DNA of 64,000 nucleotides from Isurus oxyrinchus (taxonomy: Eukaryota), in the NCBI GenBank assembly GCA_026770705.1, contig JANJGN010000034.1:6758001-6822000 (forward strand), given 5' to 3'. The notes beneath the pieces are model-generated. The model was not told the DNA's origin. It searched no databases and saw only the letters and a program-made list of their open reading frames with translations. Positions 936 to 61,813 of this stretch are shown here, piece after piece. A program made the position numbers and the translations under genes. Position 1 is the stretch's first letter; every line of letters begins with the position of its first letter.

Positions 936-962
936 ATGATCAGCTAAGTTTTTGTCAGGCTG
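936..962 (+). CDS. Micro-exon 1 (27 nt), (D)DQLSFCQA
   Basis: ttttataccag|ATGATCAGCTAAGTTTTTGTCAGGCTG|gtgttt; weak donor but fits the xxxLxxCxx exon class. Confidence 0.6.
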
Positions 963-1087
963 GTGTTTGCAACTTATTTTATTGTGAGATTTATTTTTGC
1001 CGTTGAATCAAAAACATTGCTGTCTCAATTTTATTTGGTTTTATTTAATTTGAACGCTTTCATTTCATTAATGTTCGTTGTTCATAG

Positions 1088-1114
1088 ATGGTGACTTGGA
1101 TAAAAGATATAAAC
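1088..1114 (+). CDS. Micro-exon 2 (27 nt), DGDLDKRYK
   Basis: gttgttcatag|ATGGTGACTTGGATAAAAGATATAAAC|gtgagt. Confidence 0.8.
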
Positions 1115-1389
1115 GTGAGTAAACATAAAATATTGATTTCCACTTTAAACAATCGCAGCCCTTTCACATATTTCTAGGAGTGATTGGGGATTGAGACTTG
1201 AAAGCCTCTAGGCCCGATAAGTTGCGTTATTTGTCCTATACCATACCATTTAGACGTCATCATATTATAGAAATCTTCGAAGACTTTATATCATCTAGCC
1301 AGGCGTGTTAGTACAAATCTATATGTTTGTTTGTTGACTACAGAGTTAGAGTAAAAAACACAACGCAGCAGATAGACAAAGTTGCATGT

Positions 1390-2335
1390 TTCACAAATTC
1401 AACCAGGCATCTGACGTATTGAATGTATTATAGGACATAGCATAGAGTGTTACTGCAGAAGAGACATGTTGTTGAAACTTTTCTGCTTGCACACATGAGG
1501 ACAGATTCGCAAGAATACCAAATGTAAAAGGGCACAACAATTTATGCTTCATGAAAAGACGGCATATAGCATCTGATTGGAAAGAGCCCCTACTATGAGG
1601 CATTTACAAGGGAATAGCTAACTGCCAAGAGGTTGTCTAAATTCTATACAGTCAGGTCGAGACGAATTTCTCAAGGGTTATCAATGGGGAGTGAACCAGG
1701 GAATGGCTGTCCCCCATGCTTTTGCTTAATTGAAAAAGGCGGAATGTATGGAGATGTCTTTCTGTTTGCATTCAAGAGAGTGTTGGTGTGAATGCCATGT
1801 AGCTTCTAGCATGCGTAAGTGATGGTCAGTGTGAGAATGACTGACAATATTTCATTGCTTCTCAGTGTCGTTTTAGCATGTTCAGGATTGCTTCAGGATT
1901 TGTTGTCCAAGCACAGGAACACATCTGATGTTGGATTGTTTTGTTTTTCTCTGGAGTTTGATACCCTCGGCTAACTGATTACGGCGAGTAACCTGATGCA
2001 AAAAGTCGAATAAATGTGCTGTTTAATCCGGACAGCCAGCTTTAGGGAGATACCACATTACCGAAGCAGTGGAATAAATATATCAAACCTGGTGTTCTAA
2101 ATACTGAGACCCCTTTCCTGCAATGTAAACTGTGGTAGGCTGGGCACTTTTTACCACAGAAAGTGGCAGCCTTAGGCCTGCTCGTGAGTTAACTTGATAT
2201 ACTGTGAGCACTGATCTAATTAGCTTTCCCACTATCCACCACATTACCTTGAATGCGTTCTATTTCGACATCAAGCTTGCATCGTGAGCAAATAGATCAG
2301 GCCCAATTTGATTACCTTGCGAAAATGCCCTGTGA
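1390..2335 (-). mobile_element. Decayed Penelope-like retroelement relic
   Basis: Minus strand near 2260-2305 reads RA*SICSRCKLDVEI, matching the RAxxICS..LxxEI motif downstream of Penelope RT; contains stops; boundaries approximate. Confidence 0.55.
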
Positions 2336-4341
2336 ATGCAAGGCAGAATGTTTCATCTGAGTGTTTATTTTTGCAGCAATACTCATGAAATCATGAAAGA
2401 CGTTTGCCAAGATGTTACAAAATAATCTGCTGTCGTCCATTCTAAGATGAAACAAGTAAACGTCTTTATCTTAAGAATTAGAAGCAGTATGCAATTAAAT
2501 TATTATTCGCCAAGTTATTTCATCAGTCTTCCAAGTATGGATAATCTTGTACTCTATACCTGTACAGAGTATTGTATACAACTCTGAGCAAATCTGACAG
2601 TGGCATCCGCTGCCTACTCTCTGAGTTCTGGAATAACATGGAAAATAACTTTCAAAGGATGGCAATCAGTCTCAGACTCACTCAACACCGCCAAAATGAA
2701 CATCTGGGAGAAAGCGAACGCTGCAGAAAGAGAGCTTCTGGAATTCACCTGTTCAATACAATTTCCTTGATTAGCATTGGAAGAATTCATATGGATTTTT
2801 TGCATCTTATCTTTGATTAGGAGTCTGAACAAATTTATTTATTTCTCCGTCTAGTTTGACTGCTGGTCATCCAGCACCATGTGTAAAACAGACTCTGCTC
2901 TTGCTACGTTTTCATCTGATGTTGCTGATAAGCAAATATAATTTACATCATTAATATTTGGAAGTGTTTGCAAACGTGAGATGCGTCTGATTCTGAAATA
3001 AACTCTTGTCAACACAATAACCAAGCACACTTTAGTCAATAATTGCTTCGTTTCTCTACACTACCACTTTGTAAACTCTTCTTGAGCTGTTTTATTTTCT
3101 TTATCTGAGGAGAAACTCAATCAACGTGGCCTTTAAAATATGGCGGAATGAAACACCTTAGATCGAGTTCCAACAATGCTCATCATTTCAATTATTGTTC
3201 TTGTCATCACATATCTTAAAAGTCTTAGGGTGTCCTTTTCTGTAGGACATTCTCTTTGCCTGTATTTTATGCTTCCAGCAAATTGCATGTATGTGATGCA
3301 ACCCCAATGTCGCCAACATGGATGGGACAGATATCCGTTCGATAGGTGGAAAAGGAAATGGCGGGCAAAGCAAATCGCCAGGGCACCCTAAGTACCGAAG
3401 AAAATTAGAGAAAACGGTGCTACAACACTCTCCATCCCTTGAAGTTGGGCATTGTACTTCACCAAATATCATGGCGACATGATGGCAGTGTCATCCACTG
3501 CCTTCTCTCTGAGCTCTGGGAAGACATGGGCGGTAACTTCCTCGGAGTGGCACTAAGCGTCAACGCCACTTAAAACCATTTAATTTGTTCTATTCCTGCC
3601 TTGCCTGACCTTCTGACTCAGGTAAGGTGAGGTCCTGGCAGCACCACTGTCTCCAAAGTCCAGCGTTGCAGTCCAGCAACGTTGAATTGAAATTGGAGAC
3701 ACCCTCTTTTTAGGCATGAGGTGCCCATGAACAAATTAAATTTAAAGGCCCCCTTAAATATGCTGGACCAGCAATACGGAATCTGGATAGAATTTGTTGT
3801 TTGGGGTGTTCGGAGGACAGATGAGGATGGGGGTATGGGATTCGGATATCTGGAGGTGTGTTCAGGAGGGGATGGGATTTGGACATCGGGAGATGGTTGT
3901 GGGGTATGAAGAATCCCGTGTGTTGGGATGGATAGCCAAGCGTCGGGGAGTCCCCTTAGGGGCGGGGCTGTTGGGAGTGCCCCGTGGGGCGATCCGCCTG
4001 GATCATTTTATTTTTTTCTATCCAGAGGTTGGAAGATGTTTTGAGTTCTTGAAACATTTCCTGGGTAACAATTTGTGTAACTCGGTCGGAACCATCGAAG
4101 TTTTTGTTTTAATTCGATTTTTCCCAGCACAACACTATAGCCTAAATTGTGTATGCCCTCCTGGGCAATTGCCCTGCAAATGCAGACTTGTGAAGTTCTA
4201 TCAGGGATTCCCCAGTGCTCCTTTGGTTTACCCCGAATCCAAAGCTGGGGAAGTAGGAAATTATGGTCCCACAAGTCCAAGCCCTTAGTCCTGCAAGCCG
4301 AACCAACTCCACCCCAGCATTCGCCTCCTCCCCCCACATAA

Positions 4342-4360
4342 ACACACACACACACACACA
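4342..4360. repeat. (AC)n microsatellite
   Basis: acacacaca cacacacaca seen directly. Confidence 0.9.
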
Positions 4361-4617
4361 AACTTACTATTTCCTTTCCAGGTCTCTCTTCTTTTAAGAC
4401 TTAACATCTGCCTCGTTGACCTGTCTGTAGATCTAGTCGTGTGGCTTAGTGTCAAAAAGATCAGAATATGCTAATTTTGATTCACACAAAGTGTCACTGA
4501 TGCAGTTTAGACATCTCTAAAATGAGAATGCAGGCTTCATAATTCGAAACAGCTGGATTTTTTTTGTCGTTTGTTTTCATTACAGATAAGTGCTCACTCA
4601 AAATCATTGACTTTCAG

Positions 4618-4644
4618 ATCTCGAGGATCTTGCCGAGAAATTAA
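4618..4644 (+). CDS. Micro-exon 3 (27 nt), (H)LEDLAEKL
   Basis: gactttcag|ATCTCGAGGATCTTGCCGAGAAATTAA|gtaagc; resembles exon 14 (EIEELLENI). Confidence 0.8.
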   Translation: MSRILPRN

Positions 4645-6149
4645 GTAAGCTGTATATATTAATTTGCCTGTAGCGCAGGTTCGTACTCCAGTGGGTAATA
4701 AATAATCACTTTTGTAGCTAATAAGGATCATCAATATTTAAAGGGTAACATTTGCAAGGAAGTGTCCAACAAACATACTAAATATTATAGGATAATGCTA
4801 GATATGTTGACTTCTGTGACACATAGTCTGTGATCGAAATAAATAGCAACTCTGGTTGCGGAGGCTTGCATAATTTCCTCTCGATCCCAAATTAATAAGG
4901 GTCTATACATACTATATCAGCAAAACCATTCATTGAAAATAACGAACGGGCTGGATATTGTCAATGCCGAGAGAATGATTCATCATGCGTGAGGTGCAAA
5001 ATAGTTATGCAAATATATCTTTATAGTAACTAATAGAATACGAAAAGCTACTTTACTCAGCGTGTGGATATAATGTCGAAATAATGTTGGAATAGAGAGA
5101 TGGACATCAATATCTAATAGGAAATTAATGGGCAGAAAACATATTTGGGAGAAGTGAAGATTGTTCACATATCAGGCTCTGTGTTGTAAAATCAACGGAA
5201 TTATCATTAATCTGTCTAGACCAATATCCTCTGTCCTTATCGACCATAATATTTCGATTAACATATAAATTTATGATTATTTCAACATATATTAAAAAAG
5301 TTAATAAATACATTTTGTGCAATGGATTGAAATAAGTATCAAATTGAATTATGGAGTTAGATTCATCATCGTGGTTTGGTCACATGGCTTCACATCTTGC
5401 ACCCTAGGCTGGAAGAGCGATTGACTGCTACGGCAAAGTGACAACGTTTTGCAAGTCCGCTTGATCCTGCAGAGCAGCGGGTTTAATGGCTGAGCTAGTT
5501 AGTAATCGAAAAAAAAAGCATATGAACAAATTCTGAGGGGCTGACCTGAGCAAAAGATGTTCGGTTTCTGTACATTGCTGGCTTAGCTGATAGTTGTGAG
5601 TTAAATTGCCTGCATGTTTAGAAATACTGTGTATTTATCAGTGCAATATCAGGGGCCTGGGAAAGTGTAAATGTGAGAATGAGTGTCGTTGCAATGAATA
5701 ATAACTAGTATAAAATATCATTGGAGCAGCTATAGGTTATCAACTCTCCTGAATAGGTCCAGCCTTGGCATAACTTAATTGTTGACCTTGGCCTGATTAG
5801 CACCACTCTGGCTTGATTCAGCTACTCTTTATAAGGTTGCTCGATTGCTTTAAAGACACTTTAAAATATTGGATATTCGCCCTTTGAGTAGTCAGTTACA
5901 TGATGAAATTTTCCTGATGACAATTTCAAGGCACCGTATATATTCTTCTCCTTGTTTGAATCTTAAAAGAAACAATCTATTACAAAATGCACCATTCATA
6001 GTGCGATATTGAAAAGTGCATATCAATAATTGGGAACTGTTTAAGATGTAATCTAGAAGGTTATAAAGGATTGCTTGTTTATCAGGTAGAGCATTGTTTA
6101 TCTTATTGGACACCACATCAGGAAACAAGAAAAAAATCAAGACATTAGA

Positions 6150-7570
6150 AAGTCTACTAAGGAAGTGAGCCAGGACATTATCTGCTAAAGATAATTATGG
6201 CGTGAGATGGGAAATGTCTATGCAGAAAAAAAAAATAAATAAAGAGTGCAGAATGCTACAAAGTATTCAATTTAAATAAAAAAAATAGATTGGAAGAACC
6301 TCCTGCGGTTTACTCAGAGCATTAAGGATAGCATAGATCAAAGGAAGAGACTTGTGGTGTTGCGCAGAAGAATAGAAAGTCCCAGAATTGGGGATGGTTA
6401 TAAATCAGCAAAGATCGATCAAATATTTTATTTAAGGACACGTGCTGGGGATGGAGTAGTGGTTGTGATGTAATATCAGAGGAAACTTGGCTGATTTCAA
6501 CTGTTCTATCAGTGAAGGAAGAGGAAGTTAATGTTGACCGAGAAAGGAGAAATTATTTTGGGAGGTATGGAATTCTCCAAGTAATTGACCATTTGTTTTC
6601 TATTGTCCTCACAGCAGAAGTTGCACGCCAGAAATAGAGCATAACTTACGATATAAAACGGGAGAGGAAATTGAAATAATTAACATTAGCAGGTTAAAAA
6701 GGGAAAAATATTGAGAAGCTTAAGGAGCACAAATCTGGTGGCCTACTTATCAAACACTAGGTTCATAAAGGATATAGCTGCAGAGGTAGTAGATATGATA
6801 GCTTTGGCTTTCCAAAAGCAATTCTCAGGTTAATAAGGATTCAAACAGATTGACAGGTGGCAAATGTAATGATGCGGTTCAAGAAATGAGGGAGAGAGAA
6901 TTAAGTGTAATACAGGCCAGCTAGTCTGGCACCACTCATATATGGGAATACAGCAAGACTAGGCAATGCACTTAGAAATGATATGCAATGATTAGAATAA
7001 GGCTTTATCAATGAGAAATCCTGCATGAAAATTTATTGAAGATTTTTCAGGATGCAACTAATGGGGATAATTAAGGGGAAATTTTGGATGCAATAAGTTG
7101 TATTTCAACTAGAGTTTGAATGAAATGCCAGGCAAAAATATGATTGCCAAGATATTGGAACATAGCGTTACAGTAATGTATTTGCTTAGAGAGAGGATTC
7201 GTTAAAGGACTGGAAGCAGGTAAGGGACGTAAACTGGGACATATTCAAGTTGCCATGCTTTGACTATTGGAGTGCAGCATCGATAAATTTTGAGGCATGG
7301 GTGATTTAACGTATACACTGAGGAATTAGATGACGAAACAAATACTAATGTTACTAAGAGTCCTGTGGATACAAAGCAATGTCGATGGAAAAGCTGTCGG
7401 GAAGGTACAGCGAGTCTGTAAACGGGCATGGACATATTAAATAATTTGCCAATGGGATGACAGATAAATTATAAGGCGAGGAAGTTCTAATCTGCTCACT
7501 TTTGTCGAAAGAAGTGAAAAATTGTTAGGATATTCAAGATGACCACAGACTTTAAATTATGTAACGTGGA
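6150..7570 (+). mobile_element. Highly degenerate CR1-type LINE ORF2 fragment
   Basis: Remnants of W..ANV...FKK, YRP.SL, KSC..N.L..F and D.TK motifs in order, broken by many stops and frameshifts. Confidence 0.7.
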
Positions 7571-7859
7571 CCTGGTGGCAACTGGGGGAGGATTTGATTA
7601 ATAATATTGACAGAGGGCAGGCTAAGAGCGCCAGGTACTAATAGGGGAAATCTTAATCAGAATATTGCAGGTGCATCAAGAACGTACACACTTAATATTG
7701 CACCACATGATAAGGCTAGCTTTGTGAAAATAATGGCAAGACAGAATAAAACGCGCTGTAGGTGAATGCACAGAACAGATGGTAGATGGATTGATGCCAG
7801 AAATAGAAGTAAACAAGGATGGCATAATTGCAATTTCGGGGACGTGTCTGTAGCGTGAC

Positions 7860-10330
7860 CATGGTTGGGAACATATTTTTTTCCACATTAGGAAATATAA
7901 ACAATCGATAAGGAAGTGGAATAGCACTTGTATGGTTCTGATACATTAGTGAGAGAGGGTCTTAGATCAGAACTTGAATATGTAGGATCCAGTTGAGTGG
8001 AACTAAGAGAGAACAAAGTGCAGAAAATAGTTGGCTGTTATTGTTTATGGACCACCAGAGAGCAATGGTAATATAGAGAATGGTACAAATAAGCAAGCTA
8101 GAGGTGCATGTAATAAGGTTGATGCAGAGTCAATGGGGAGTTCGATGAACATTTTGGCGGGGGAAACCGAATTTGCACTAAGATGGTGGAGGTGCAGGTG
8201 TTGGAATGTATGTGAGGTGATTTGCTTTCCAATTTTTTTTGGAGGAGCCAACCCAACTAGGAAACGCGTTACTTCATAACCAGTATTGTTCAATGAGAAA
8301 GAAATGATTAATATTACTGTGGTAAAGAAGCTTTTTGGGAAGGGTGAACATCAGATGAAGAAACTGTTCATGAAGTCTGAAAGCGATAGAGCTCAATCCT
8401 GAACAATGGTAATCAATCTACATATGAGCTAATTAAATTATATAAGGGAGAAACTGACGGTGGAAGGTTAGCAATCTATTTTGTAATGTGCAGCAGTAGA
8501 CATGCAATGAATAACAATGCAATAATTAATATGTAGTTGCAAACAAAAGCCCAGTAGGAAAGGTGAATAAACCATTGTTTACAAGAGTAGCTAAAATGAA
8601 TTACATCAAAGGAAGCTGGTTGGAGACGTTGCCAGAAGGAATTAATAAACAGGAGGGTTGGGAGCATTTTATAATACAGTAGCAACGAAGCAAAAAAAGA
8701 AAATAACTGTTAAAGAAAGTGAAACAAGAACATGGAAATAAATTGTAGGGAAGCATTAATAATGGAATTCACAGACTGATAGTTGTGCAAACAGGACAAG
8801 GTTAACAAAACCAAATTCATATCGAAGAGGCAAGATAATGTGTAACGTCCATCTTCATGGAGGAAAACACAAAGTAAAACAAATAAACTTCCAAGGAAGA
8901 TGAAAGAACTAGCGAGAATAAGGAATTGAACAAATTTGTATTAGCAAATCAAAAAGTAGCAATGGAAAAATGTGTGAGAGTTAAAGTTCATCAATTTCCT
9001 TGACATATATTCCAGATGTGGAAGGCGTGGCTTCTGAGATAATGGATGCATTGGTGGTCATTCCGCTAACCGAAACCATTACTGGAGCAGCCATATGAAT
9101 ACTTTGGTTGCAAGAGCAGCTCGGATGCTCGGGATTCTGAGGCGAGAAACTGACCTTCGGTCTCCCAAACGCTGTCCACAGCATTCAATGCACAAGGCAG
9201 GACAGTGATGGAATACGCTCAACTTGCGTGAATGAGTGCAGCTCCAACAACCTTCAAGAAGCTTTACATGCACGAGGACAAAGATTCCCGCTTGAGTGAA
9301 ACCTGATCCACCATCCTAAACCTTATGTCCCTCCACCAATGACGCAGCAGTGTGCAACATGTCCAAAAAGCACTGCAGCAGATCTCCTATGGGTCTCCTT
9401 CGATAGTACCTTCAAAACCATTACCTGTTGCCTGTCAACATTATCACATTTTCGTCGATATCGAAGCCAGGCAACTTCCTCCTTTGGGAACATACCAACG
9501 TTCCAAAAACTGTAGCTGCATAACAATGCTGGACTTCCTTGCTCACAGCACTGTGTGTGTTCGTTCTACTTGTGGACTGAAGAGGTTCAAGGCGGAGGCT
9601 AAGCACGACTTTCTCAAAGACAATTAGGCATAAACCATAAAGGATGGTCTAGCCAGCCAGATCCATATCTTAAGGTCAAATATAAATAACTATAACAATG
9701 GCTTCTGGAGGGATCCCAGCAGAATAGAATGTAGCATATGGATCCCCGCTGAGAAGAAAAGAAGGAGAGAGAAAACAAAGCACTGAACACCTGTGAGTCT
9801 GACATCAGTTGTTGGGCAAATGCTGGAATCTATTATAAAGGGTCTGATAACTGCATATTTAGACAATAATGATAGGATTCAGGAGGGGCAGCGTGGATTT
9901 CTGAAAGGGGAATGGTGTTATGAACATGTTGAAGTTCTTTGTGGATGCAGCTGAGCTGAGTAATCCAGGGCGGAGCAGTTCACAGGATGTTAGGAAGCAA
10001 CATTAGAGCCCAATAAATTCAAATAATATACTGGACTAGATTGAGAATTGGATAACGGACAGAAAGCAGGGATTAAGGATAAACGGGCTATTTTCATATT
10101 TGCAGGCTGTCCTTAATGTGGACTCGCAAGGAGCGGTTCTTGGACGCCCGATATTCATAGTGTATATCACTAATATGTATTTGGGGCACGATTGTAAGTT
10201 CCCAGGAACTAAACATGTTATAGGATAATGGGTCCAGCAGGAAAATGGTGTAGAGGTAGAAGATCAGCCATGATGGAGAAATGCGGAGACGGACCTCGGG
10301 GCCGAAGTACCAATTCCTGTTGTCATTTTT
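7860..10330 (+). mobile_element. Degenerate CR1-type LINE (endonuclease to 3' UTR) interrupted at about 9075-9670 by the 3' end of a second LINE family
   Basis: VIVYGPP endonuclease-like peptide at 8031; later QRGF.KG..C and W..DRKQ RT remnants; CR1-like tail gatcagccatgat...attcctgt; the insert carries the gtgatggaatac...gagtgcagctccaacaac motif. Confidence 0.7.
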
Positions 10331-10469
10331 TTGTAGCTCTGAAGGACAAAAAAAAACTAGGTCTAATGCGCGAATAATCAGCGTGTTTGTGCACAATATA
10401 ATTGGCAACAGAAGCAGAGTATAATGGGAATATTATGACGATATTGTTGGGAATATTTTGATTCAGAAG

Positions 10470-10590
10470 ATGATTGATGATGGTGATATTCATTATTATT
10501 ATCATCATTATTATTACTCTTGCGTTCATTATTGTTATTATCTTCATTATTGTTCGTGATATTATTATTTTTATTACTCTTATTATTAAT
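10470..10590. repeat. Degenerate (ATT/ATC)n low-complexity tract just upstream of micro-exon 4
   Basis: cattattattatcatcattattattact... seen directly. Confidence 0.85.
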
Positions 10591-10612
10591 TTGAATATGT
10601 TTTTTTTTCCAG

Positions 10613-10639
10613 TCGCAGCAATGCTGGCAAAAGATAAAG
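10613..10639 (+). CDS. Micro-exon 4 (27 nt), (I)AAMLAKDK
   Basis: tttttttttccag|TCGCAGCAATGCTGGCAAAAGATAAAG|gtaaat. Confidence 0.85.
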
Positions 10640-34235: not shown

Positions 34236-34238
<3 letters not shown>

Positions 34239-49562: not shown

Positions 49563-49589
49563 AACGACAACTCAGGAAGTGTGTGAGAG
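49563..49589 (+). CDS. Micro-exon 19 (27 nt), ERQLRKCVR
   Basis: ttttcttttgtcag|AACGACAACTCAGGAAGTGTGTGAGAG|gtaaac. Confidence 0.87.
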
Positions 49590-50352: not shown

Positions 50353-50379
50353 AGAGTGGAGGCCCAGATAGAAGTAATG
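50353..50379 (+). CDS. Micro-exon 20 (27 nt), ESGGPDRSN
   Basis: cttcttttgctag|AGAGTGGAGGCCCAGATAGAAGTAATG|gtgagtaga; same 3' junction as exon 23. Confidence 0.87.
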
Positions 50380-51145: not shown

Positions 51146-51221
51146 CAAAAACAGAATTACCTGGAAAAACTCAGCAGGTCTGGCAGCATCTGCGGAGAAG
51201 AAAAGAGTTGACGTTTCGAGT
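51146..51221. mobile_element. Single-arm copy of the young palindromic element
   Basis: 76 bp nearly identical to 32623-32698 (one mismatch seen). Confidence 0.85.
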
Positions 51222-51307
51222 GGCATGGCAGAGTTGTTAACACATTTTAAACCTACAGGACGTTAAGAACAGTGCCAATGAAAAGAGGATATTGCCTAAG
51301 GAATAGT

Positions 51308-52310
51308 ATGGGTCAGTGCTGGGGCCACAATTTTTCACTTTATACATTAATGTTCTAGATGAAGGAATTGAGGGCATCCTGGCTACGTTTGCAGATGATA
51401 CAAACATAGGTGGAGGGACAGGTAATATTGAGGAGGCGGCAAGGCTGCAGAAGGATTTGGACAGGTTAGGAGAATGGGCAAAGATTTGGCAGATGGAATA
51501 CAACGTGGGGAAGTGTGAGGTCATGCACTTTGGTAGGAAGTATAGAGACATAGACTACTTTGTAAATGGGGGCAGAATTCAGAAATATGTTGTGCAAAGG
51601 GACTTGGGAGACGCAATCCAGGATTCTCTTAAGGTTAACCTGCAGGCTGAGTCGGTAGTTAGGAAGGCAAATACAATTTTGACATTTATTTCGAGAGGAC
51701 AAGAATATAAAAGTAGGGCTGTGCTTCTGGAGCTTTACAAGGCTCTGGTCAGACCACATTTAGAATACTGTGAGCAATTTTGGGCTCCGTATCTCAGGAA
51801 GCTTGTGCAGGCCCTGCGGAGGGTCCAGAGGAGGTTCACGAGAACGATCCCAGGAATGAAAGGCTTAACATATCAGGCATGTTTGAAGACTTTGGGTCTA
51901 TACTCGCAAGAATTTAGAAGGATGAGCGGGTAACTGATTGAAACTTACAGAATACTCAAAGGCCTGGATAGACTGGATGTGGGGAAGATATTTCCATTAG
52001 TATGAGAGACTAGGACCCGAGGGCACAGCCACAGCATAAAGGTAAGACCTTTTAGAACACAGATGGAGAAAATTCTTAAGCCAGAGGGTGGTGGATCTAT
52101 GGAATTCATTGCAACAGAAGACTGTCGAGGCCAGGTCATTGATTGTAATTGTGATCGAGGTAGATAGGTTCTTGATGGGTAAGGGGATCAAATGTTATGT
52201 AGAGAAGGCGGGAGATTGCGGTTGAGAAACTTATCAGCCATGATTGAATGCTGGAGCAGGCTCGATGGGCCGAATGGCCTAATTTATGCTCCTATGTCTT
52301 ATGGTCTTAT
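51308..52310 (+). mobile_element. 5'-truncated, relatively young CR1 LINE with open RT C-terminal frame (51316..51933) and 3' UTR
   Basis: SVLGP..F.LYIN, FADDT, LQKDLDRLGEWA..WQMEYNVGKCEVMHFGR and LYKALVRPHLEYC.QFW.PY motifs; tail cctatgtcttatggtcttat; possible TSD gaatagt at 51301-51307 and 52311-52317. Confidence 0.95.
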
Positions 52311-53941
52311 GAATAGTTTACATAGAATACTTGTAAACGTTTGTTTTTTTTTAAATTATGATTGCCCAGAGGTTCATTTTTAATATGGTTTGTTAGGATT
52401 GCTACTGCTATTTTTGATGTGTATCAATTGCCTGATCTTGAATATGAATTTTTCTAGAGTTTTAAATTACATTATCTAAATGCCAGAGATACCAGTTTCT
52501 TTGGCAGCAGAAGCAGATAATGTAATATTTTACACAGAAGTGATATCAGATAATATTCCCTGCATGGCAAGATCTTACATTCCGGAATGCTCTGTCCATA
52601 ATTAAAACTGTTAAGTTTGGAGACCTTGCGACTCTCTGATTTGATGCAGATAATGAGGAAAATTATATCAATTACTAGTAAAATGGGCCCAATAGTGTAA
52701 CGTGATACTTAACATAGAGACGTCAAAAGGGGTTTTTTTTTTAGGAATGACAATAGCAAAACAAGTGTTAAGGAGCAACTAGGAACGATTCTGCATGAGC
52801 CACATTAAGTTGAATTGGGAAAAGGTGACATATTACCGTAAGGTAAAAAGTGTCCCCAATCATTGGCTCTATTAATGTTGGAACGTTTCTTAAAATAAAT
52901 AAAAATTGAACGCTAGCATATAAGTCACAGGGGTTTGCATGTGCATATTTGTCCTCTGGAAAGATGCTTTGCACAATATGAAATGGCCTCCGAATGAATA
53001 CAGCATAGATTTATTGTGTTCCAGGACAACACAAATGGGGGTCATCAGGGATGGTGTTCTGGGGGTGGTGGTGGTGGCAGAGGTTCACCAAAGATGAAGT
53101 GGGGAACCACCCCATCGCCACCCAACAACCCCCATCGCCACCCCAACCCAGAAATTCGCAGGCAGGAATTGCTATTCAATGGCCAGGCAAGAGAAATCTT
53201 CACATGGCAATTACCCTGCGATGGGGAGCATCTGAAATTGAGAATTAAATGGTACACTTCGGATCATTCAGATTGTATTACATCAAGTGTTTCCCAGAGA
53301 ACTTTGAATAATTAAAACCATGTCCACCTTCTTGGGAACATCCTGCTGACAGGAATAGAAATCAACCTCACTCTTGTTCATACTCCACTTCCATTTCCAT
53401 TTTACTTGCTCAGATAAATCATTGTTTTAGGCGATGGGTACACTTAATATTTTAGATTGTTATATTTGACGGAATATCGAAAACAAAAAAAATGATCCTC
53501 CACAATACGGAGTGAGTGCTACACCATCGGAGGTACATTAATTTCAGCGAGAGATATAGAAAGGTAGAGAGATAAATCAGACAGGAATGGATGTTTCATA
53601 TAGATGAATGTAGAGGGTAGTAATCGAAACTGGTAAATGAAAATGAACACAGATACTGTTGTGTTATTGAGAATGCCTTTAAGTCTAAAATGTAATTTTG
53701 CATTTTATTTGTTTTTTGTGAACGAAGCTGTGACATGTCAAACAATGCTTTCACAAGATCAATTAGCTGAACTGTCACTAATTTCAAATGTTCGAGCAAG
53801 CAGTCCGTTGATTGATATCAGAAAGCTGGTTGTGCCAATGGTCTTGACAACGAGAAAGTAAACAGTGACACATGTTATCACACTTTCCGCGTTTGTTGAA
53901 CACTGTCGGGTTGATGGGAATCATTGTTGTTTTCTATCCAG

Positions 53942-53977
53942 AGATAGCGAAGCTGAAGGAAGATCTGAATGATACAG
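53942..53977 (+). CDS. Micro-exon 21 (36 nt), EIAKLKEDLNDT
   Basis: gtttttctatccag|AGATAGCGAAGCTGAAGGAAGATCTGAATGATACAG|gtgcaa; weak donor but clear paralog of exons 12 and 24. Confidence 0.85.
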
Positions 53978-54602
53978 GTGCAAATACGAATTGACATCAC
54001 TGCTTACGCGCTGATAGACTTCTGATGGAAGGCTGCAAATTTACAACCGCTAAGCCTTTGAAAGCATTTAAGTAAATGCCTACATTAATTTCAGTTACAT
54101 TGTAATTCCTAGTAACAATTTCAAAACGATGGGTCTCAATTTAACTTAAACATTTCATCCAAGGTTTCTGTTCAGCGTTTTCAGCGCTGCAGTGTTTATA
54201 TTGGAGTGAATAACATCATGATTCAGACAGTCTATAAAACCTCTGTAGTGTAAGTTATATTACATATATATACTTCTGCGGTATTTTTCGATTAGTTATT
54301 AATTGCTAATCATTTTTTTTATTGTAAATTGACAATGCTGGTAAAAATCTTACAATGTCTAAACAACAGATGTTGATTACCATTTAATATGAATCTTTAA
54401 ATATTAACAAACTCAACAGCTGATGTAATCAGTAAGACAACTGCGTTAAATATTAATTATAAATGCCGTACAAATGAATATCATTAATTTGCTAATCCTC
54501 AAGTAATTCGAATTATCATTAATAACCTGCTGATCCGCTGATGCTACGATAAATAACACAATTTAACATTCTTTAGTATTAATAATCAACTTTATTACGT
54601 AG

Positions 54603-54629
54603 AATCCAAGCTGAGAAAGTGTGAGCAAG
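54603..54629 (+). CDS. Micro-exon 22 (27 nt), ESKLRKCEQ
   Basis: ctttattacgtag|AATCCAAGCTGAGAAAGTGTGAGCAAG|gtacat. Confidence 0.85.
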
Positions 54630-54757
54630 GTACATAGGGTACATTGTTGTGATTTCAATAACAGCATCCTTCTAGTAATCCTTTTCTGTAAGACGTTTTC
54701 TTTACATTATAAAAATTGTATATAGATTATCAGTTAATTGCGTTTTTATAATCTTAG

Positions 54758-54784
54758 AGCTGAAAGGTCGACCTGATGAAAATG
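54758..54784 (+). CDS. Micro-exon 23 (27 nt), ELKGRPDEN
   Basis: tttttataatcttag|AGCTGAAAGGTCGACCTGATGAAAATG|gtgagtaga. Confidence 0.87.
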
Positions 54785-55299
54785 GTGAGTAGATAAGATC
54801 GGAAGTGAATTATATGCTAAGTGGAAACTGGCACGCAAACTTTCAATTTACTGTAATGGATTTGATCATCTCCCAAAAGGTAACAGCTTAAGGGGCAGGC
54901 AATCCGACTGACCTCTGCTGTACCTTCGGAGTATGTTCTGTTCCAAAGATTATACGCATATATTTGATAATGGACACACGGATTCAGGAAGGATTAGAGA
55001 GTCATGAAGAGAGAGAAAGAGAGGGGGAGTCGTGGTGAGGTGTAGAGAGAGAGAAATTTGTGATTAATACAAATCAATGCTGAAATTATCCATAACAAGG
55101 AATGGCACATTGTGCGCAAATTCTTCAGCCATGAATGAAAAAATAAAACAATTGATTTAATGTATTCAAATTGCAATATTTTTTTCGCCTTTTGCTCTGT
55201 CTTGCAACCATTCAGATTGTTGGGCCCTCGGGAAGCATGTTATGTTTCCATCTATCAAAGACTGAATTGCCACAGAGAGTGCCAAATGCTTTTATTGTT

Positions 55300-56870
55300 A
55301 TTTGTTTTCGTGGAACATAGCCAGAATTTATAGTCCATCTTTAGTTGCCCTTCAAAAAGTGGTGGTGAGCGGTCTTCTTGATCTGCGGCAGCTAATGTGC
55401 TGAAGGTCCAACTACCATCTTGTTAGGGAGGGGTACTAGGATTCTAACCCAGCAACAGTGAAGGAACGGCGCCATACTTCCACATAAGAATGCTGAGTGA
55501 CATAGCGGGAAAATTGCAAGTGTGGTGTTACCATCCATCAACTCTCCTTGTCCTTCTAGATTATAGTAATGGTCGGTTTGGAAGGTGCTGTCTCAGGAGA
55601 CTTGGCAAATTCCTGGAGCACTCTTTTAGATGGTAAACAATGCTGCTACAGTGTGTGGGTCATCGTTGGTGTGAGTGCTTGTGAATGTGGTGCCAAACAA
55701 GTCGGCTGCTTTCACCTGGATGGTGTCAAGCTTCTTGAGTGCTGTGGGAGCTGCACTCATCCAGAGTTATGGAGCATATTCCATCAGATTCCTTACTTGT
55801 GCCTTGTATATAGCGGGAAAGCAATGAGCAGTTAGAAGGTGCGTTACTAGCCAAAGGATTGCTACCCTGTTACCCGCTGTTGCAGCCAGAATATTTATAT
55901 GGCCAACCCAGTTCTGTTTCAGGTCAATGGTAACAGCAAGGATGTTGATAATGCGGGATTCAGCGATAGTAAATTCATTGAATATCACGGGACGATAATT
56001 AGATTATCTCTTGTTGGGGAAGGTTATCCCCTTGCACTTGTGTGGGCCGAATGTTCACTGTTATTTGTCACCCAAAGCCTGGCCATTGTTGAGGTCTTGC
56101 TGCCAGTGGACATGGACTGCTCCAGCATTTGAATAGTCGCAAATGGTGCTGACCACTTTGCAATTATCAATGGACATCTCCACTGCTTACCTTATGATGG
56201 AAGGAAAGTTATTGATGAAGCAACTGACGGTTGTTGGGACGAGAACACTACCCTGAGGAACTATTTCACCGATGTCCTGTAGCTGAGTTGCCTGACCTCC
56301 AGCATCCACAGCAATCTCCCTTTGTGATATATGTGAGTCCAGCCAGGGGACAGTTTTCCCCCAATTCCCATTGATCCCAGTCTTGGTACTGGCCCTCGAT
56401 GTCACACTCGGTCATTTGCAGACTTGATGTCCAGAACAGTCACTTTCACTTCACAACAGAAGTTCAGCACTATTGTCCATGCTTCAACAAAGGCTGTGAT
56501 GAGGTGAGGAGCTTAGTGGCCCTGGCATAACACAAACTGTACGTCAGTGAGGCAGTTATTGCTAAGCAAGTGCCACTTGTTTGCACTATTGATGATCGCT
56601 TCCATTACTTAACCAACGATTGAGAATAGACTGATGGTGCTCTAATTGGCTCGGTTGGATTTGTTCTGGTTTTGGGTACATGACGTGCCAGGGCAATTTC
56701 CCACATGGGCAGGTAGATACCAGTGTTGCAGCTCCAATGGAATAGGTTGGCTAGGCGTATGGCAAGTTTTAGATTGCAAGTCGTGAGTACTATTGCCAGA
56801 AAACTGTGAGGACCAATAGTGTTTGCAGTATCCATGGTCTTCAGCCATGTCTTCATGGCACGTGATGACC
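55300..56870 (-). mobile_element. Degenerate LINE (second family) RT and 3' end
   Basis: Minus ORFs contain VPQGSVLVPT..SCFINN.PSII, IYKAQVRNLMEYAP and TGIYLPMWEIA. Confidence 0.9.
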
Positions 56871-56969
56871 ATTCTAAGAAACGCACATCAATATAAAGCC
56901 ACTTATCACACTGACAATGCTTTTAATCAGGTAATCGGCTTATTTATGCAACTTTGATCTCTATTACAG

Positions 56970-57005
56970 AGGTAGCACGGTTGAAAGAGGATCTTCAAGA
57001 CACAG
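56970..57005 (+). CDS. Micro-exon 24 (36 nt), EVARLKEDLQDT
   Basis: atctctattacag|AGGTAGCACGGTTGAAAGAGGATCTTCAAGACACAG|gtatga. Confidence 0.9.
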
Positions 57006-57072
57006 GTATGAATGCTTGCCGGTGATTCACACCCAGTTCTACACGATTATACCACAACAAAAAACCTTATGG

Positions 57073-57440
57073 TTCTTCTTCTTCTTCTTCTTCTTCTTCT
57101 TCTTCTTCTTCTTCTTCTTCTTCTTCTTCTTCTTCTTCTTCTTCTTCTTCTTCTTCATATTCTTCTTCTTCTTCTTCATATTCTTCTTCTCTTCCTTCTC
57201 CTTCTTCTTCTTCTCCTGCTTCTTCTTCCTTTTCTTCTTCTTTTTCCCTTTTCTCCCCCTTCTCCTCCTAATCGCCTCCCACTTATTCCTCTTCTTATCC
57301 TTCCTCTCCTCTTTCTTCTTCTTTGTCTTCTTCCCCTTCTTCTGTTTCGTCTTCTCTTCCTCCTTCTCCTTCCACCCCCTTCGTTTTCTTATTCTTCTTA
57401 TGCTAATACTTTTCCTTCTCCTTGTTCTTCTTCTCACGTT
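57073..57440. repeat. (TTC)28 perfect repeat (57073-57156) followed by a degenerate polypyrimidine tract
   Basis: Seen directly; explains the poly-L, poly-F and poly-K ORFs. Confidence 0.95.
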
Positions 57441-57843
57441 CATTCAGATCGTCGCAATGCTTTGTGTTTTTCACTTCGCCATCTCCTTTTATCTACTGTG
57501 CCTTCCAATCTCAATGCGTTTACGTGTCCCAAAAATATATCTTTCTCTCTGGCATTATTCCTCCCTCATCTCACTTCTGTCCCTGGCAGACGCATCTTCA
57601 TCAATCGTCCTACCTCATTCACCCTCTCTCTCATTAGTTGATGATATAAAACTTGATATGTTTTCTGGGTAGTTTCTTGAATTTCTCACAATCATCACTG
57701 ACATGTTGATGTGCTGGTCCCTGATAATATTATTTAGTGTCATTTCGCACATTAAACCCGGGGTCTTCATGATATTCAAATCCCCTCTTTGTTTCTTCAT
57801 TTTTTAAATGTTGCCCATCTTTATGCAAGTTATAACAAGTCTC

Positions 57844-58011
57844 AGAATTACCTGGAAAAACTCAGCAGGTCTGGCAGCATCGGCGGAGAAGAAAAGAGTT
57901 TTCTTCTCCGCCGATGCTGCCAGACCTGCTGAGTTTTTCCAGGTAATTCTGTTTTTGTTTTGGATTTCCAGCATCCGCAGTTTTCTTTGTTTTTATTTTT
58001 TTTCTTTGTTT
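57844..58011. mobile_element. Young palindromic insertion (same family as 32.7 kb) with 14-bp TSD
   Basis: 53-bp perfect arms 57843-57895 and 57899-57951 plus a T-rich tail; flanked by ttataacaagtctc at 57830-57843 and 58012-58025. Confidence 0.88.
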
Positions 58012-58284
58012 TTATAACAAGTCTCGTTCCACATCCTTCTCGCTGATCAACCATTCAGTTCCGGCAATTATTTTCAAAAAACACTTCACTATTATGATTC
58101 ATTATTTTTCATTTCCTTTCATCCATCTTCTGCCAGCAATGACCCCAGGAGCTCTACTCAGCACCCTGTCTCCAAATATTCACTTAAAATATTTACTCTG
58201 CCACATAAATCTAAGCTAACAAATCGATACACTTGCTATATGTTTTTTACTAGTGATGTCAGTGGCAGATGAGAAAATTTTATT

Positions 58285-61200
58285 TTTCTTTATTCAATGG
58301 TCGGATGTGGGTGTTACTGTCCAGGCCAGGTTGTATTGCCCATTCATAATTGCCCTTGATAATGTGCCGATGACCTGCCTTCTTGAAGCATTGTGGTGTA
58401 GTTGCACCGATAATGCTGTTAGAGAGGGTGTTCCAGGATTTGAACAAAAGGACAGTGAAGGAACTGCCCTTCTAAGCCAAAATGGTTGTAAGCTTGGAGA
58501 GGGTCTTCCAGATGAGGACATGACCAGGTTTCTGCTGGCCTGTTCCTTCTACATGGTAACGCGCATGCATTTGCAAGATGCTGCCTCAGGAGGCTTGGAG
58601 AGCTAATGCAATGCATCGTGCAGGTTGTATCGACATCTGATCCTGTAATTCGATAGTGGAGGAAGTGATTTTTGAGCAGGGGGTGTTAATCAAGGGGACT
58701 TTTTTATCCTGGGTGGTGTCAATCTGCTTGGACTTTGCTGGAAATGTGGTCATCCAGGCAAGTGGAGTGTTTGGTATCACACGCATGAAATGTGCCATTT
58801 AGATGTTCGACAAACTTTGGAGAGTCAAGAGTTGAGTTGTTCGCCGCAGGATTCTTAAATCTGATCTCTTCTTGTAGCCATATGGCTAGTCCAGCTCAGT
58901 ATGTGGGCAATGGTAACCTCCCAGTAAGTTCATAGTTGCTGTTTAAGGCTGGTAATTCGAATGAATGAATGGCAGTGGTTAGGTTCTCTATTGTTGGAGA
59001 TGATGACTGCCTGGCATTTGATCAGCGTGAATGTTACTTGCACTTACCAGTGCACGATTGGGAATTGTCCAACCCCTGTTGCATTTGTACAAGGATGAAA
59101 CCATTTTCTAAGCAGTCAGGAAAGTTGCTGAATACTGTGCAAAAAGCAGCGAACATCCCAATACCTGAACCTATGATGGACGGCAGGTCATTGGTGAAGT
59201 AGCTGAAGCTGCTTGAGACTTGGAAATAAACTGAAGTAACTCAACTAGTGTTGTCTGGAACTGCAGGGTTGACTTCGAACAAACACAACCAACACGCGAT
59301 GTATGGCTCCAACAAGTGGAGAGTTTCCCATTTTTCCCCTGGACTCCAGTTCTGCTTGGACCCCTTGATGCAACATTCGGTAAAAAAAAAAAGCTGCCTT
59401 GATCCCAAAGGCAGTCGCGCTCACATCATATCTGAAGTTTGGCTTCTGTTCGTTTTTTCTTGTTCACCAAGCCTGTAAGCAAGGCAGAATCTGTGTAGGT
59501 CTGGCGAAACCAGGACTGAGCGCCAGTCGTGAATTTATTGCAAAGCAAGCTCTTTTTGATGCATCTTTGTTGGCCTCTGATGTGTGTGATATGAAACTCT
59601 CCACTTGCCTGGATGACCACATTTCCAAGAAAATCCCAGCAGATTAACACCACCCAGGATAAAACAATCCGCTTGATTAACACCCCCTGCTCAAACATTC
59701 ACTTCCTCCACTATTGAATCACAGCAGCTGATGTCGCTACAACCTACACGAAGCATTGCAGTAACTCACCAAGCCTCCTGAGGCAGCACCTCAGGGGAAG
59801 AAATTGGCAGGTTTGGAATTCTGCTGCTTTTTGCCTACAGAACAAACCTGAGCAATGTTGCACATTTCCGGGTGGATGCCAGTGTTACAGCTGTTCCGAA
59901 AAGCTTGGCTAGGAGCAGTGAAAGTTCTGAAGTGCAGATCTTCAATTATATTTCTGGTATATTGTCAGGGACCATGGCCTTTTGCAGTTTCCAGTGCATT
60001 CAGCCATTTCTGGACATTACTTGGATTGAATCGAACTGGCTTTGCTGCTTGGAACCAAAGGAGGTAGCCGAGATTTGCCGGCCATCCAACACACCTGAAA
60101 GAAGATTGTTGTAAAGGTTTCAACGTTAAATTCACAGTGACGCATTGTGCTCACCAATCATGCAGGAGGAAAGCATTTGTGAAGCCTCCTGCTTCAGTGA
60201 GTTGCTTAGATTTACTTATCCTTCACGATTGGATGTCGCAGGACTATTGAGCTTAGATTGCATCAGTCACCTATGGAATCCCGGTAGTTTGTCAGTTGTT
60301 GCTTTGCACAAAATTTGTCCTGTGCTACCACTTCACCAGGTTCATACCTAATACTTGGGGATGCCTGATTCTTCTCCTGGCATACTGTCCTGAACTCTTC
60401 ATTGGGCTAGGGTTGAGACCCTGTCTTGTTGGTCATGGCAGAATGTCCAAAATGCCCTTTCGTTAGGTGACAGATTGTGGTGCTGCTGAGGGCCCAAAGC
60501 ACCTCATGTTTTCCCCGTCTTCACTTGCTACATATCTTCGTAATATACACATTTTGCAGCGTGCAAGTGCCAAACAGCACATTGGTGGGGATCCTCAATG
60601 TGAACCTGGGACTTATTGGAACCCACAAGAGCAGTGTGGTCGCCACTCCTGCATGGACAAGTTCATCTATTACATGCAGGTTGACAAGGATGAGTCCAAG
60701 TAAGTATCTAATTTCTATGGCTGGTACGCTCATCAAATGTGAAAGACCGAGTCCAGCAGTTATGCCAGCTCGGTTTGAAGTGGTGGCATTGAAGTCCCAA
60801 GGTACATTCATGCACTTACCAACATTAGTGTTTCCTCCAAAACTGGTGGCAAACATGGGGGAGTACTCATTCATCAGCTCAGGGGATCGGTAAATGATAA
60901 TCAGAATGCGGTTTTCTTGCCTGTGTTTGACCTGATGCCGTGAGAAATTCAGGCATATCCGGCTCACTCCCGATTGCGTCGCACAATGCCACAATCTCTG
61001 CTGGGTCCGCACTGGGCCAAGACATACCAAAGGATGTTGATGGTGCCAGGGGCATTACCTGAGTGGAAAGTAGCTTGGCGAGCCTGAAAAATTCTAAATG
61101 ATGCTGTTGGTTGACAAATCGCCTGGGTCGACATGGCTGAGTTTGCCATTGTTGTTTCCGGTGTTAATGTCAGTGCCAGGCCGTTTGTCTGGTTTTATTG

Positions 61201-61440
61201 TTCTTAGGCGTTTTACCGGATTGATGCACCTGAATGGATTGCAATCGATTTCATAGTGTAGTCAGGACTGAAGCACATTGCTTGGGTCTGAGGTCAGATG
61301 TAGGCCAGTTCAGATTTTCCAGATTTCTTTTGAACTAAAATTTCACCAAATGACTGTGGTGGGATTCGTAACTAGGAAACCAGACCATTAACCTGGGTCT
61401 TTTGTTTATCAGTCCAATTACTTCTATGCCTCTGCCAACC
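58285..61440 (-). mobile_element. Degenerate near-full-length LINE (second family) with tRNA-SINE-like 5' end and an internal inverted segment
   Basis: Endonuclease-like remnants (ILIIIYRSP, DFN, LLGLILVNL.V in ORF 60521..61030); colinear with the other copies; SINE-like head at 61230-61440. Confidence 0.75.
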
Positions 61441-61786
61441 GCAGCTGTTGACAAGATTACTTATGATTTTGTCATTATTATCCAGTGAATGATTTAAATT
61501 GACTTCATAATATCAGTTAGCGTGCATCATCATGGATCAATAATGAGTTGATCGACACTTGTCATCGTATATAAAACAGAGGGGATGCACCTAATTAAAT
61601 ACTTATTAATTATTATTATCACATGCTATTAACTTTCGCTATTATGCATTAATTAATATTTAGTTCTGTGCCAAGTAATTATCTCAGCAGCGTTTAAGTA
61701 CTGCATTCATAAATATTCCATGGAGAGGTAGGTGCACCTATCCATTGCCAAGCATTCAACATTAAATATTTGCAATTATTATTTAG

Positions 61787-61813
61787 AAAACGATCTTTGG
61801 AAGTGCCAGGAAG
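61787..61813 (+). CDS. Micro-exon 25 (27 nt), ENDLWKCQE
   Basis: attattatttag|AAAACGATCTTTGGAAGTGCCAGGAAG|gtaaga. Confidence 0.86.

Follow-up and report, generated by a model that had tools for sequence, protein, structure and literature searches.

The 64,000-nt stretch analysed here (the window) covers 6% of a gene, termed gene B, that occupies ~1.06 Mb (about 1,063 kb) of the plus strand at about C34:6.43/6.45-7.497 Mb. Five such genes (A-E) lie within 4.8 Mb, with open B30.2 exons in all five and one B30.2 exon per unit among 150 scored matches. Within gene B, 612.7 of the 1,063 kb were read and yielded 155 micro-exons, all symmetric, no longer than 36 nt, and on one strand and in one phase; the total for the gene is estimated at 240-335. 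The array pattern is far in excess of chance: in the 612.7 kb, strong AG..GT pairs on the plus versus the minus strand number 63 versus 5 at 27 nt, 52 versus 6 at 36 nt and 21 versus 5 at 21 nt (the 21-nt exons being concentrated mainly near the 5' end, e.g. at 6.46 Mb), and phase 1 is free of stops in 115 of 119 strong 27/36-nt candidates, compared with 48 for phase 0 and 57 for phase 2. The terminal exon (Table 1) matches Pfam PF00622 (E=3.4e-12), with no score for Pfam PRY, and its best solved-structure relatives are the B30.2 domains of butyrophilin 3A1 (BTN3A1, E=5.8e-20) and of TRIM proteins. The predicted product is a segmented, alpha-helical coiled-coil rod with an inferred size of roughly 2,500-3,500 residues and a C-terminal B30.2 domain.

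Within the window the array comprises 25 AG..GT exons totalling 738 nt, identified by a splice-site scan and by comparison with the tandem paralog A described below, and it continues past both 936 and 61813. The list is not wholly independent of that comparison because paralog A guided the removal of doubtful candidates at 4718, 18902, 29664, 33726 and 45607. The earlier note's claim that every exon is a multiple of 3 and symmetric is borne out, all 25 being phase 1 and either 27 nt (n=18) or 36 nt (n=7) long, and when joined they leave the phase 1 reading open throughout. The 63-nt size class that it also listed is absent from the exon set (n=0), 63 being 36+27; a candidate of this length at 58850 was rejected for want of an aligned copy in paralog A, and another at 51359 lies inside a LINE-like ORF. 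Cys codons occur in 8 of the 25 exons, and 19 have donor scores of at least 7 on an approximate matrix. A recount gave the same 21 of 25 exons ending in G as reported before (T in 2, C in 1, A in 1). About 80% of donors carry G at position -1, and 71 of 88 strong minus-strand decoys are G-terminal as well, partly because the scoring rewards a terminal G; the G ending is ordinary donor consensus and nothing special.

Table 1. Features of the window and the terminal exon of gene B (window positions unless prefixed C34)
Position	Strand	Feature	Remarks
1..64000	+	Window	wholly inside gene B, which extends far past both window ends
936..962	+	27-nt phase-1 exon, coil type	Cys; donor weak here, strong in paralog A
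1088..1114	+	27-nt exon, hinge type	C-ending; 125 nt past previous exon
4618..4644	+	27-nt exon	A-ending
10613..10639	+	27-nt exon	
13220..13255	+	36-nt heptad exon	T-ending; junction stop with 12 later exons
13595..13621	+	probable decayed 27-nt exon	outside the 25; in-frame stop, weak acceptor
13787..13813	+	27-nt exon, Pro/Gly hinge type	
14269..14295	+	27-nt exon, coil type	Cys; paralog A copy identical
15623..15658	+	36-nt heptad exon	
17808..17834	+	27-nt exon	Cys; T-ending; junction stop with 11 later exons
18566..18592	+	27-nt exon, hinge type	Cys
20018..20044	+	27-nt exon	
21334..21369	+	36-nt heptad exon	
22252..22278	+	27-nt exon, hinge type	Cys
22636..22662	+	27-nt exon	
25465..25491	+	27-nt exon	
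34018..34053	+	36-nt heptad exon	
43349..43375	+	27-nt exon	
48188..48223	+	36-nt heptad exon	
49563..49589	+	27-nt exon, coil type	Cys
50353..50379	+	27-nt exon, Gly/Pro hinge type	
53942..53977	+	36-nt heptad exon	
54603..54629	+	27-nt exon, coil type	Cys
54758..54784	+	27-nt exon, hinge type	128 nt past previous exon; acceptor AG lost in paralog A
56970..57005	+	36-nt heptad exon	
61787..61813	+	27-nt exon	Cys; weak acceptor; surrounding 1.3-kb stretch missing from paralog A
C34:7,496,442-7,496,962	+	B30.2/SPRY terminal exon of gene B	phase 1; outside window

Heptad register and exon skipping

Hydrophobic residues fall at positions 2, 5, 9 and 12 of the 36-nt exons and at position 4 of the 27-nt exons, 21% of which carry Cys at position 7, and a 36+27 pair keeps the a/d spacing unbroken over 21 residues, or three heptads; the Cys of the rod occupies a core heptad position. 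Adjacent 36-36 exons were observed 10 times against 22 expected, with none of 10,000 shuffles as low, and the heptad score of random 36-27-36-27 strings (0.59) falls to 0.42 when one 27 is removed and to 0.29 when one 36 is removed. Since 36+27 nt make three heptads, the skipping of one exon leaves the frame intact yet moves the coil register, and this register speaks against free combinatorial exon use. Within the window the argument is weaker, as 18 exons of 27 nt stand against 7 of 36 nt and several are Gly/Pro-rich, giving a hinged rod.

The earlier statement that nearly any subset of exons could be skipped holds for the frame but not for the junctions, where 23 of 300 forward exon pairs create a stop, in every case through one of the T-ending exons, 13220 or 17808. 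No stop arises from single skips of internal window exons (0/23), and 86-98% of random exon subsets are free of stops. Gene models of relatives lack in-frame blocks of 6 and 9 aa in electric ray, 9 aa in catshark, and 9 and 7 aa in chimaera, each model showing one or two internal blocks and no combinatorial set. Because these differences are clean blocks of 6, 7 or 9 residues, some micro-exon skipping probably takes place in the chondrichthyan coiled-coil+SPRY family. Two atlas clusters of long SPRY proteins, one named 'isoform X51' (79 members, score 0.76-0.79) and the other 'isoform X...' (137 members, score 0.91-0.92), both leads only, hint by their names at many isoforms. No RNA data set was listed as carrying the terminal exon, and two presumed-RNA runs compared with 15100-29300 gave repeat matches only, with GT..AG at 0 of the 15 joints listed out of 34, results that are neutral on expression.

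Tandem paralog, block duplication and selection

Paralog A is a 1.6-Mb tandem copy of gene B, with the breakpoint at 6,433,485-6,433,690. The two are collinear at those sampled points which align, and alignment offsets make the 5' part of A ~500 kb longer than that of B. Of the window exons, 24 of 25 align to paralog A, and both AG and GT are retained in 23 of these 24, compared with 112 of 336 non-3n control candidates. Identity is 0.875 in exons and 0.82 in introns, pN is 0.105 in exons versus 0.18 in introns (p=2e-6), and dN/dS across the 24 exons is 0.47. For 20 exon pairs outside the window that were called without paralog A, dN/dS is 0.52 and splice sites are retained in all 20, while the B30.2 exon has a dN/dS of 0.45 and shares 92% identity with the end of paralog A. 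These comparisons show that the window exons encode protein and evolve under purifying selection relative to the tandem paralog. A related organism is collinear with the window stretch at about 95.5% identity.

Internal duplications in gene B comprise blocks of 39-42 kb (82-87% identical) and further ones of about 8 kb and 16-21 kb, and the duplicated blocks (8-42 kb) carry their introns. A 39-42 kb block is located at 7.03-7.16 Mb. Some exons are lost or decayed in one of the A/B paralogs, with splice sites lost or stops gained; the counterpart of the decayed exon in Table 1 is open in paralog A and has a strong acceptor. Growth by duplication of exon-plus-intron blocks, together with exon loss at the DNA level, is shown directly, and exon duplication, which the earlier note had put forward as the alternative to its own proposal, is visible in the DNA as both block and whole-gene copies.

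The 5' region and relatives of gene B

A signal-peptide-like exon at 6,421,428 is intact, has a strong donor and ends in phase 1, and the 60-nt intervals right before it are the best conserved of the duplicate (0.97-0.98 versus a mean of 0.815). It duplicates exon 1 of the nectin-like gene lying after gene B, whose Ig-V exon is likewise copied, in broken form, at 6,424,334, and none comparable was found in the 53 kb scanned at paralog A. As gene B's own signal-peptide exon it was mostly rejected because of this origin, and no signal peptide could be tied to gene B, this copy being the only strong upstream candidate. A first exon at 6,449,438, a short hydrophobic ORF, was rejected as unproven, its donor being phase 0 and its conservation that of the flat 80% background. 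Ig spacing was absent from all 8 long stretches open in phase 1 within 6,396,400-6,588,000 and from all 3 in the 5' region of paralog A, in a scan that recovered the Ig-V exon of the neighbour as a control; no transmembrane exon was detected in 6,421,500-6,560,000 or in the 5' region of paralog A, that of the neighbour again being recovered. A tblastn search using 163 proteins, of which 45 carry a RING motif and 31 a B-box motif, matched B30.2 exons and four repeat-like stretches but no RING/B-box exon, with limited sensitivity given that a similar search missed the neighbour's Ig exon. Pfam identified neither RING nor B-box in 8 relatives, and no domain exon besides B30.2 was found in the parts of gene B tested.

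The relatives come from cartilaginous fishes and combine a coiled coil with SPRY, lacking Ig and RING domains. A quick tree was built from the five genes and 68 of 182 proteins, omitting isoform duplicates, short matches and rows with lower scores; in it the five genes group with the chondrichthyan coiled-coil+SPRY proteins in a single clade (18 of 73 rows, SH-aLRT 100). Profiles of gene B exons tile a 945-aa catshark relative with a score of 110, compared with 22+-8 (maximum 40) in 100 shuffles. A profile search of proteins of 325-2,000 aa returned 17 matches and a search of those of 94-301 aa returned 2 matches at 54%. The longest database relatives, at 1,697 aa, are below the size estimate for gene B, and no full-length orthologue was found in protein databases (302-2,000 aa; >2,000 aa via representatives only). 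Their labels ('TRIM39-like', 'TRIM58', 'A33-like', TPR-type) are misleading and look automatic. No paper on the family was found, although subscription journals and supplements, not covered, could mention such genes.

Known systems and interpretation

The nearest analogues of gene B are the heptad tails of chicken BG and butyrophilins, not a schistosome-type MEG. Chicken BG genes (PMC5938342, PMC4046983, PMC8813856) form a tandem array with duplication and hybrid genes. Their long coiled-coil tail is spread over many micro-exons whose first codon is split (27-37 exons of 21 nt, the number varying by gene), and alternative splicing is reported in it; they also encode an Ig-V domain and a membrane segment but lack B30.2. 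Gene B shares the tandem array and the split-codon micro-exons that carry heptad repeats, but its unit is mostly 36+27 nt, its exons are estimated at 240-335 and B30.2 is present. Heptad exons followed by a C-terminal B30.2 exon also characterise butyrophilins (BTN3A1 and kin); these, however, have few heptads, Ig domains and a membrane segment, and the B30.2 of gene B falls in a separate chondrichthyan clade. Unlike BG genes and butyrophilins, gene B showed no intact Ig or membrane exon in the regions scanned. TRIM proteins with PRY-SPRY likewise place a coiled coil before a C-terminal B30.2, but differ in that no RING/B-box was seen in the relatives or DNA tested and the rod of gene B is far longer and micro-exon encoded. 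Enterophilin-1, a mammalian protein much shorter than the gene B product, is soluble and combines leucine-zipper repeats with B30.2, without Ig or RING; the likeness is one of domain layout. PMC13749957 describes an SNX1/EGFR role for it.

Human titin (PMC3575840) is encoded by 363 exons, 3n in length, and skipping tunes the length of this giant elongated protein. Gene B resembles it in an estimated hundreds of 3n exons and a predicted elongated giant product, but the sequences are unrelated (Ig/PEVK versus coiled coil), and regulated skipping is proven for titin and hypothetical for gene B. Schistosome MEGs (PMC8293314, PMC4015677) are coded mostly by symmetric exons of <=36 nt and are small, secreted and fast-evolving, with no homologues outside schistosomes and with raised dN/dS (PMC8293314). 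The comparison of the array with MEGs made previously stands for the short symmetric exons (25 of 25 in the window) but fails on selection (dN/dS 0.47-0.52) and domain content, gene B being giant, periodic, under purifying selection and ending in a known domain, B30.2, with chondrichthyan homologues.

On balance we favour gene B as a giant coiled-coil+SPRY gene grown by duplication, with exons mostly included and length set by evolution. Ancestral heptad exons preceding the B30.2 exon would have been phase 1-1, as in butyrophilin/BG tails, and symmetry would be inherited rather than selected for splicing; only phase 1-1 exons survive duplication or loss in frame. Most exons would normally be included, with single exons skipped occasionally as in the relatives, so that rod length would be set mainly by gene evolution. 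In what is the weakest step, the product may be a soluble, probably cytoplasmic oligomer resembling a TRIM/butyrophilin tail minus RING, B-box, Ig and membrane anchor, with a long rod holding SPRY binding heads at its tip as a scaffold or tether. The B30.2 domains of TRIMs are cytoplasmic. Those of butyrophilins are too (PMC8813856, PMC4046983), but this location is insecure for gene B because 3 of 9 relatives' gene models start hydrophobic.

A rather unlikely alternative is that regulated, tissue-specific skipping now acts on the duplicated symmetric exons, as in titin, removing mainly hinge exons, 36+27 pairs or long blocks to give a ladder of rod lengths bearing the same SPRY head. The 23 singly skippable internal exons, the blocks absent from the electric ray, catshark and chimaera models, the isoform numbers in the atlas names and the precedent of titin's 3n exons all fit, but those models show only one or two blocks per gene, single skips move the register, donors are mostly good, and duplication and loss of DNA already account for the symmetry. 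We consider it unlikely that the array represents several shorter coiled-coil genes with internal promoters or alternative last exons, or that only its 3' part joins B30.2. The unread 42%, the length of the database relatives and the longer 5' part of paralog A leave room for such a division, against which stand the single B30.2 exon per unit, the uniform strand and phase, the A/B collinearity and the lack of further domain exons in the tested parts; the short database models may also be fragments.

It appears very improbable that combinatorial skipping diversifies a secreted or surface product whose disulphide partners depend on its number of Cys, perhaps with the exon at 6,421,428 spliced onto gene B. 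Exon size and symmetry, the Cys codons, the integrity and conserved flank of that exon and the hydrophobic starts of some relatives agree with it, but the exon's nectin-like origin beside a broken Ig copy, its lack of a counterpart in the 53 kb scanned at paralog A, the low dN/dS and the cytoplasmic B30.2 of known proteins do not. That the exons are decaying relics of a protein no longer made is scarcely credible given the dN/dS values of micro-exons and B30.2 exon alike; exon copies with lost splice sites or gained stops do occur, but the five B30.2 exons are open and a related organism shows collinearity across the stretch.

An undescribed cartilaginous-fish family of giant SPRY-tipped coiled-coil molecular rulers, with lengths graded by regulated skipping of hinge exons and 63-nt heptad units, is a speculative outcome that we regard as doubtful; if true, it would involve single shark genes of 1-1.6 Mb with exon counts near or above that of titin. 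Even without shuffling, the estimated exon number would rank gene B, which shares 4.8 Mb with its 1.6-Mb tandem twin and three further relatives, with the vertebrate genes richest in exons (363 in titin), and its exons of 21-36 nt are readily missed by annotation. It offers a clean test case of whether symmetric micro-exon arrays serve isoform diversity or are a by-product of growth. The locus shows runaway growth of a butyrophilin/BG-type heptad tail through block duplication, and the A/B pair is a record of exon birth and death.

Micro-exons of the window and the probable rod they encode

A splice-site scan of the window, based on approximate vertebrate frequencies, revealed a strong excess of AG..GT stretches of 27 nt (n=16) and 36 nt (n=6) among 146 strong plus-strand candidates, and neither length was among the 12 commonest of the 102 strong minus-strand candidates. 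The resulting set, spanning 936 to 61813, numbers 25 exons: 18 are 27 nt and seven 36 nt long (738 nt in total). They are open in phase 1, that is, with a split first codon. This agrees with the earlier note's description of symmetric, multiple-of-3 exons, 21 of them ending in G, but not with its 63-nt spacing class, as the set has no exon of that length. G was also the last base in 71 of 88 strong minus-strand decoys, partly by construction of the score; exon-final G is the usual donor base. Free skipping of nearly any subset, also proposed, held for single exons (0 of 23 skips give a stop) and failed in part for pairs, as 23 of 300 forward exon pairs do.

The coil exons follow a grammar. Hydrophobic residues occupy positions 2, 5, 9 and 12 of the 36-nt type in 84, 98, 93 and 58% (n=55) and position 4 of the 27-nt type in 80% (n=71), with Cys mostly at position 5 of the former (38%) and position 7 of the latter (21%), which are one and the same position of the coiled-coil heptad. 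One 36-nt plus one 27-nt exon make three heptads; adjacent 36-36 pairs number 10 against 22 expected, and the heptad score for random strings is 0.59 when complete versus 0.42 or 0.29 with one pair member missing. A second class of short exons, Gly/Pro/Asp-rich and often 95-128 nt past a coil exon (six pairs and one doubtful), looks like a hinge. Such exons abound in the window, whose part of the protein would therefore be a segmented rod in which skipping a hinge exon would presumably cost little.

Gene B and its family

The window occupies C34:6,758,001-6,822,000 of a 4.98-Gb genome. Similar exons extend 100 kb beyond each window end and recur in stretches sampled between 5.82 and 7.33 Mb on this contig (C34). 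The array upstream of gene B, the micro-exon gene containing the window, terminates at C34:6,395,819 in a phase-1 exon encoding a B30.2/SPRY domain. A genome search with this exon (150 of 455 candidates scored) found five close matches on C34, all with a SPRY score, the 7.50 Mb match being 92% identical to the query. Three of these matches belong to further family genes at C34:2.70-4.82 Mb, two on the minus strand; the sampled genes C, D and E have the same exon types on matching strands, and C and D appear to be head to head.

The closest protein relatives are coiled-coil+SPRY models of chimaera, catshark, skate, electric ray and the bamboo, epaulette and basking sharks, the longest of 1,697 aa, and SPRY was the sole Pfam domain at its cut-offs in eight relatives scanned. 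In a quick 73-row tree with midpoint root, genes A (the tandem paralog upstream of B) to E and the chondrichthyan relatives form a single clade (18 rows, SH-aLRT 100). Of five relatives tested, four were tiled by exon profiles from gene B with scores above all 100 shuffles. No description of this family was found in the literature searched, and its interest lies more in its size and obscurity than in the splicing idea.

The closest working likeness is the chicken BG (butyrophilin-family) tail, with micro-exon heptads and a split first codon; published accounts report that this tail varies in its number of exons and in how it is spliced (PMC5938342, PMC4046983, PMC8813856). Gene B lies outside BG, butyrophilin and TRIM genes because Ig, membrane, RING and B-box features were looked for and not found in the DNA tested. 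A scan that recovered Ig-V and membrane exons in the neighbouring nectin-like gene found neither intact in the 5' regions of B or A. That neighbour's Ig-V exon matches Pfam V-set (E=1.2e-10), with nectin-2 as best solved match, and the scan saw no Ig-C exon between its Ig-V and membrane exons. In its partial duplicate upstream of gene B the Ig exon carries one stop and two 1-nt deletions and the signal-peptide exon is well conserved; the latter, at C34:6,421,428, is a duplicate of the neighbour's first exon, and, intact and ending in phase 1, might in principle be joined to gene B by splicing.

Growth, splicing and alternative readings

The earlier note's observation holds, and its reading of the pattern finds partial support. 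We consider gene B to be, probably, a giant coiled-coil+SPRY gene that grew by duplication and is spliced in a mainly constitutive way, apart from some skipping of single exons. The window is assigned to it from the positions of the B30.2 matches; the reading frame closes at C34:7,496,962, and the A/B tandem breakpoint is at C34:6,433,485-6,433,690. In the 612.7 kb read of its 1,063 kb, strong pairs numbered 63 on the plus versus 5 on the minus strand (27 nt), 52 versus 6 (36 nt) and 21 versus 5 (21 nt), 115 of 119 being phase-1 open, and a trained score, its profile scored in-sample, called 155 exons versus 19 on the minus-strand null. Scaling gives an estimated 236-335 exons and about 2,500-3,500 residues, assuming even density and one transcript; that the array is instead several shorter units seems quite improbable.

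Regulated length tuning by exon skipping has a precedent in the 3n exons of titin (PMC3575840), and we regard it as unlikely here. Internal blocks separate isoform models in electric ray (6 and 9 residues; two of five models), catshark (9 residues; one of three) and chimaera (9 or 7 residues; two of four), and are inferred to be exons from their length, in chimaera also from their place just before B30.2. Isoform models of this kind rest on RNA. Some Atlas clusters bear names with high isoform numbers, which are no more than leads.

Within gene B, blocks of 39-42 kb (C34:7.03-7.16 Mb; 82-87% identical, introns included), 16-21 kb (6.47-6.50 Mb) and about 8 kb (6.84-6.85 Mb) are duplicated; gene A lacks exon 61787 and has lost the acceptor of exon 54758, and copy 13595 has a stop in B and is open in A. 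Symmetric phase-1 exons are therefore gained and lost at the DNA level, bearing out growth by exon duplication, the alternative the earlier note had allowed; such turnover explains the symmetry without invoking splicing.

Alignment of the window with gene A extends over 58,357 bases (82%) and includes 24 of the window's 25 exons, 23 with AG and GT kept (controls, 112 of 336); exon identity is 0.875, pN 0.105, pS 0.207 and dN/dS 0.47, with intron divergence 0.18. As gene A had helped to exclude five doubtful candidates, the test was repeated on 20 exon pairs from beyond the window that had been called with no recourse to A: all 20 kept their sites, with pN 0.076 versus 0.158 in introns and dN/dS 0.52. 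The B30.2 exon gives 0.45. That gene B is a relic is scarcely credible. Secreted diversity like that of schistosome micro-exon genes (MEGs) is very improbable: MEGs are secreted with raised dN/dS, according to two reports (PMC8293314, PMC4015677), whereas gene B has 0.47-0.52, and the proposed parallel reduces to exon geometry, the sole shared trait.

Minor features

Contigs of a related organism's DNA are collinear with most of window 15549-28831 at about 95.5%.

Coordinates of family members, neighbours and minor features
Feature	Position	Remark
Close B30.2 matches	C34: 2.71 (-), 3.47 (-), 4.82 (+), 6.40 (+), 7.50 Mb (+)	genome search
B30.2 exon cluster	another contig (C21), about 82.9-118.2 Mb	very large; accounts for the bulk of the 150 listed matches; possibly a TRIM/butyrophilin expansion
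Nectin/PVR-like gene	C34:7,510,720-7,524,148	directly after gene B; signal-peptide, Ig-V and membrane exons
Partial nectin-like duplicate	C34:6,421,428-6,424,684	upstream of gene B; signal-peptide exon intact, Ig exon broken
Two open frames, hydrophobic stretches	C34:6,415,857-6,416,600	between A and B; look like a disrupted seven-helix receptor gene
5' part of gene B	C34:6,454,724-6,527,086	21-nt single-heptad exons (BG-like state), then 36/27-nt exons
Possible extra exons	window 7190-7219 (30 nt), 24506-24529 (24 nt)	outside the counted 25; splice sites and open phase-1 frame kept in both paralogs
Long TTC repeat	window 57073-57434	begins 68 nt past exon 56970
Two G runs, one AT repeat	window 14991-15046, 29359-29399, 34144-34235	
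Repeat copies	window 15514-15580, 32623-32827, 51146-51221, 57837-57965	shark-type SINE, some as back-to-back halves
ORF	window 51307-51930	LINE reverse-transcriptase-like; no counterpart in paralog A
Intron duplicate, ~100 nt	window 20541-20637 / 22446-22545	1.9 kb apart; identity 84-86%
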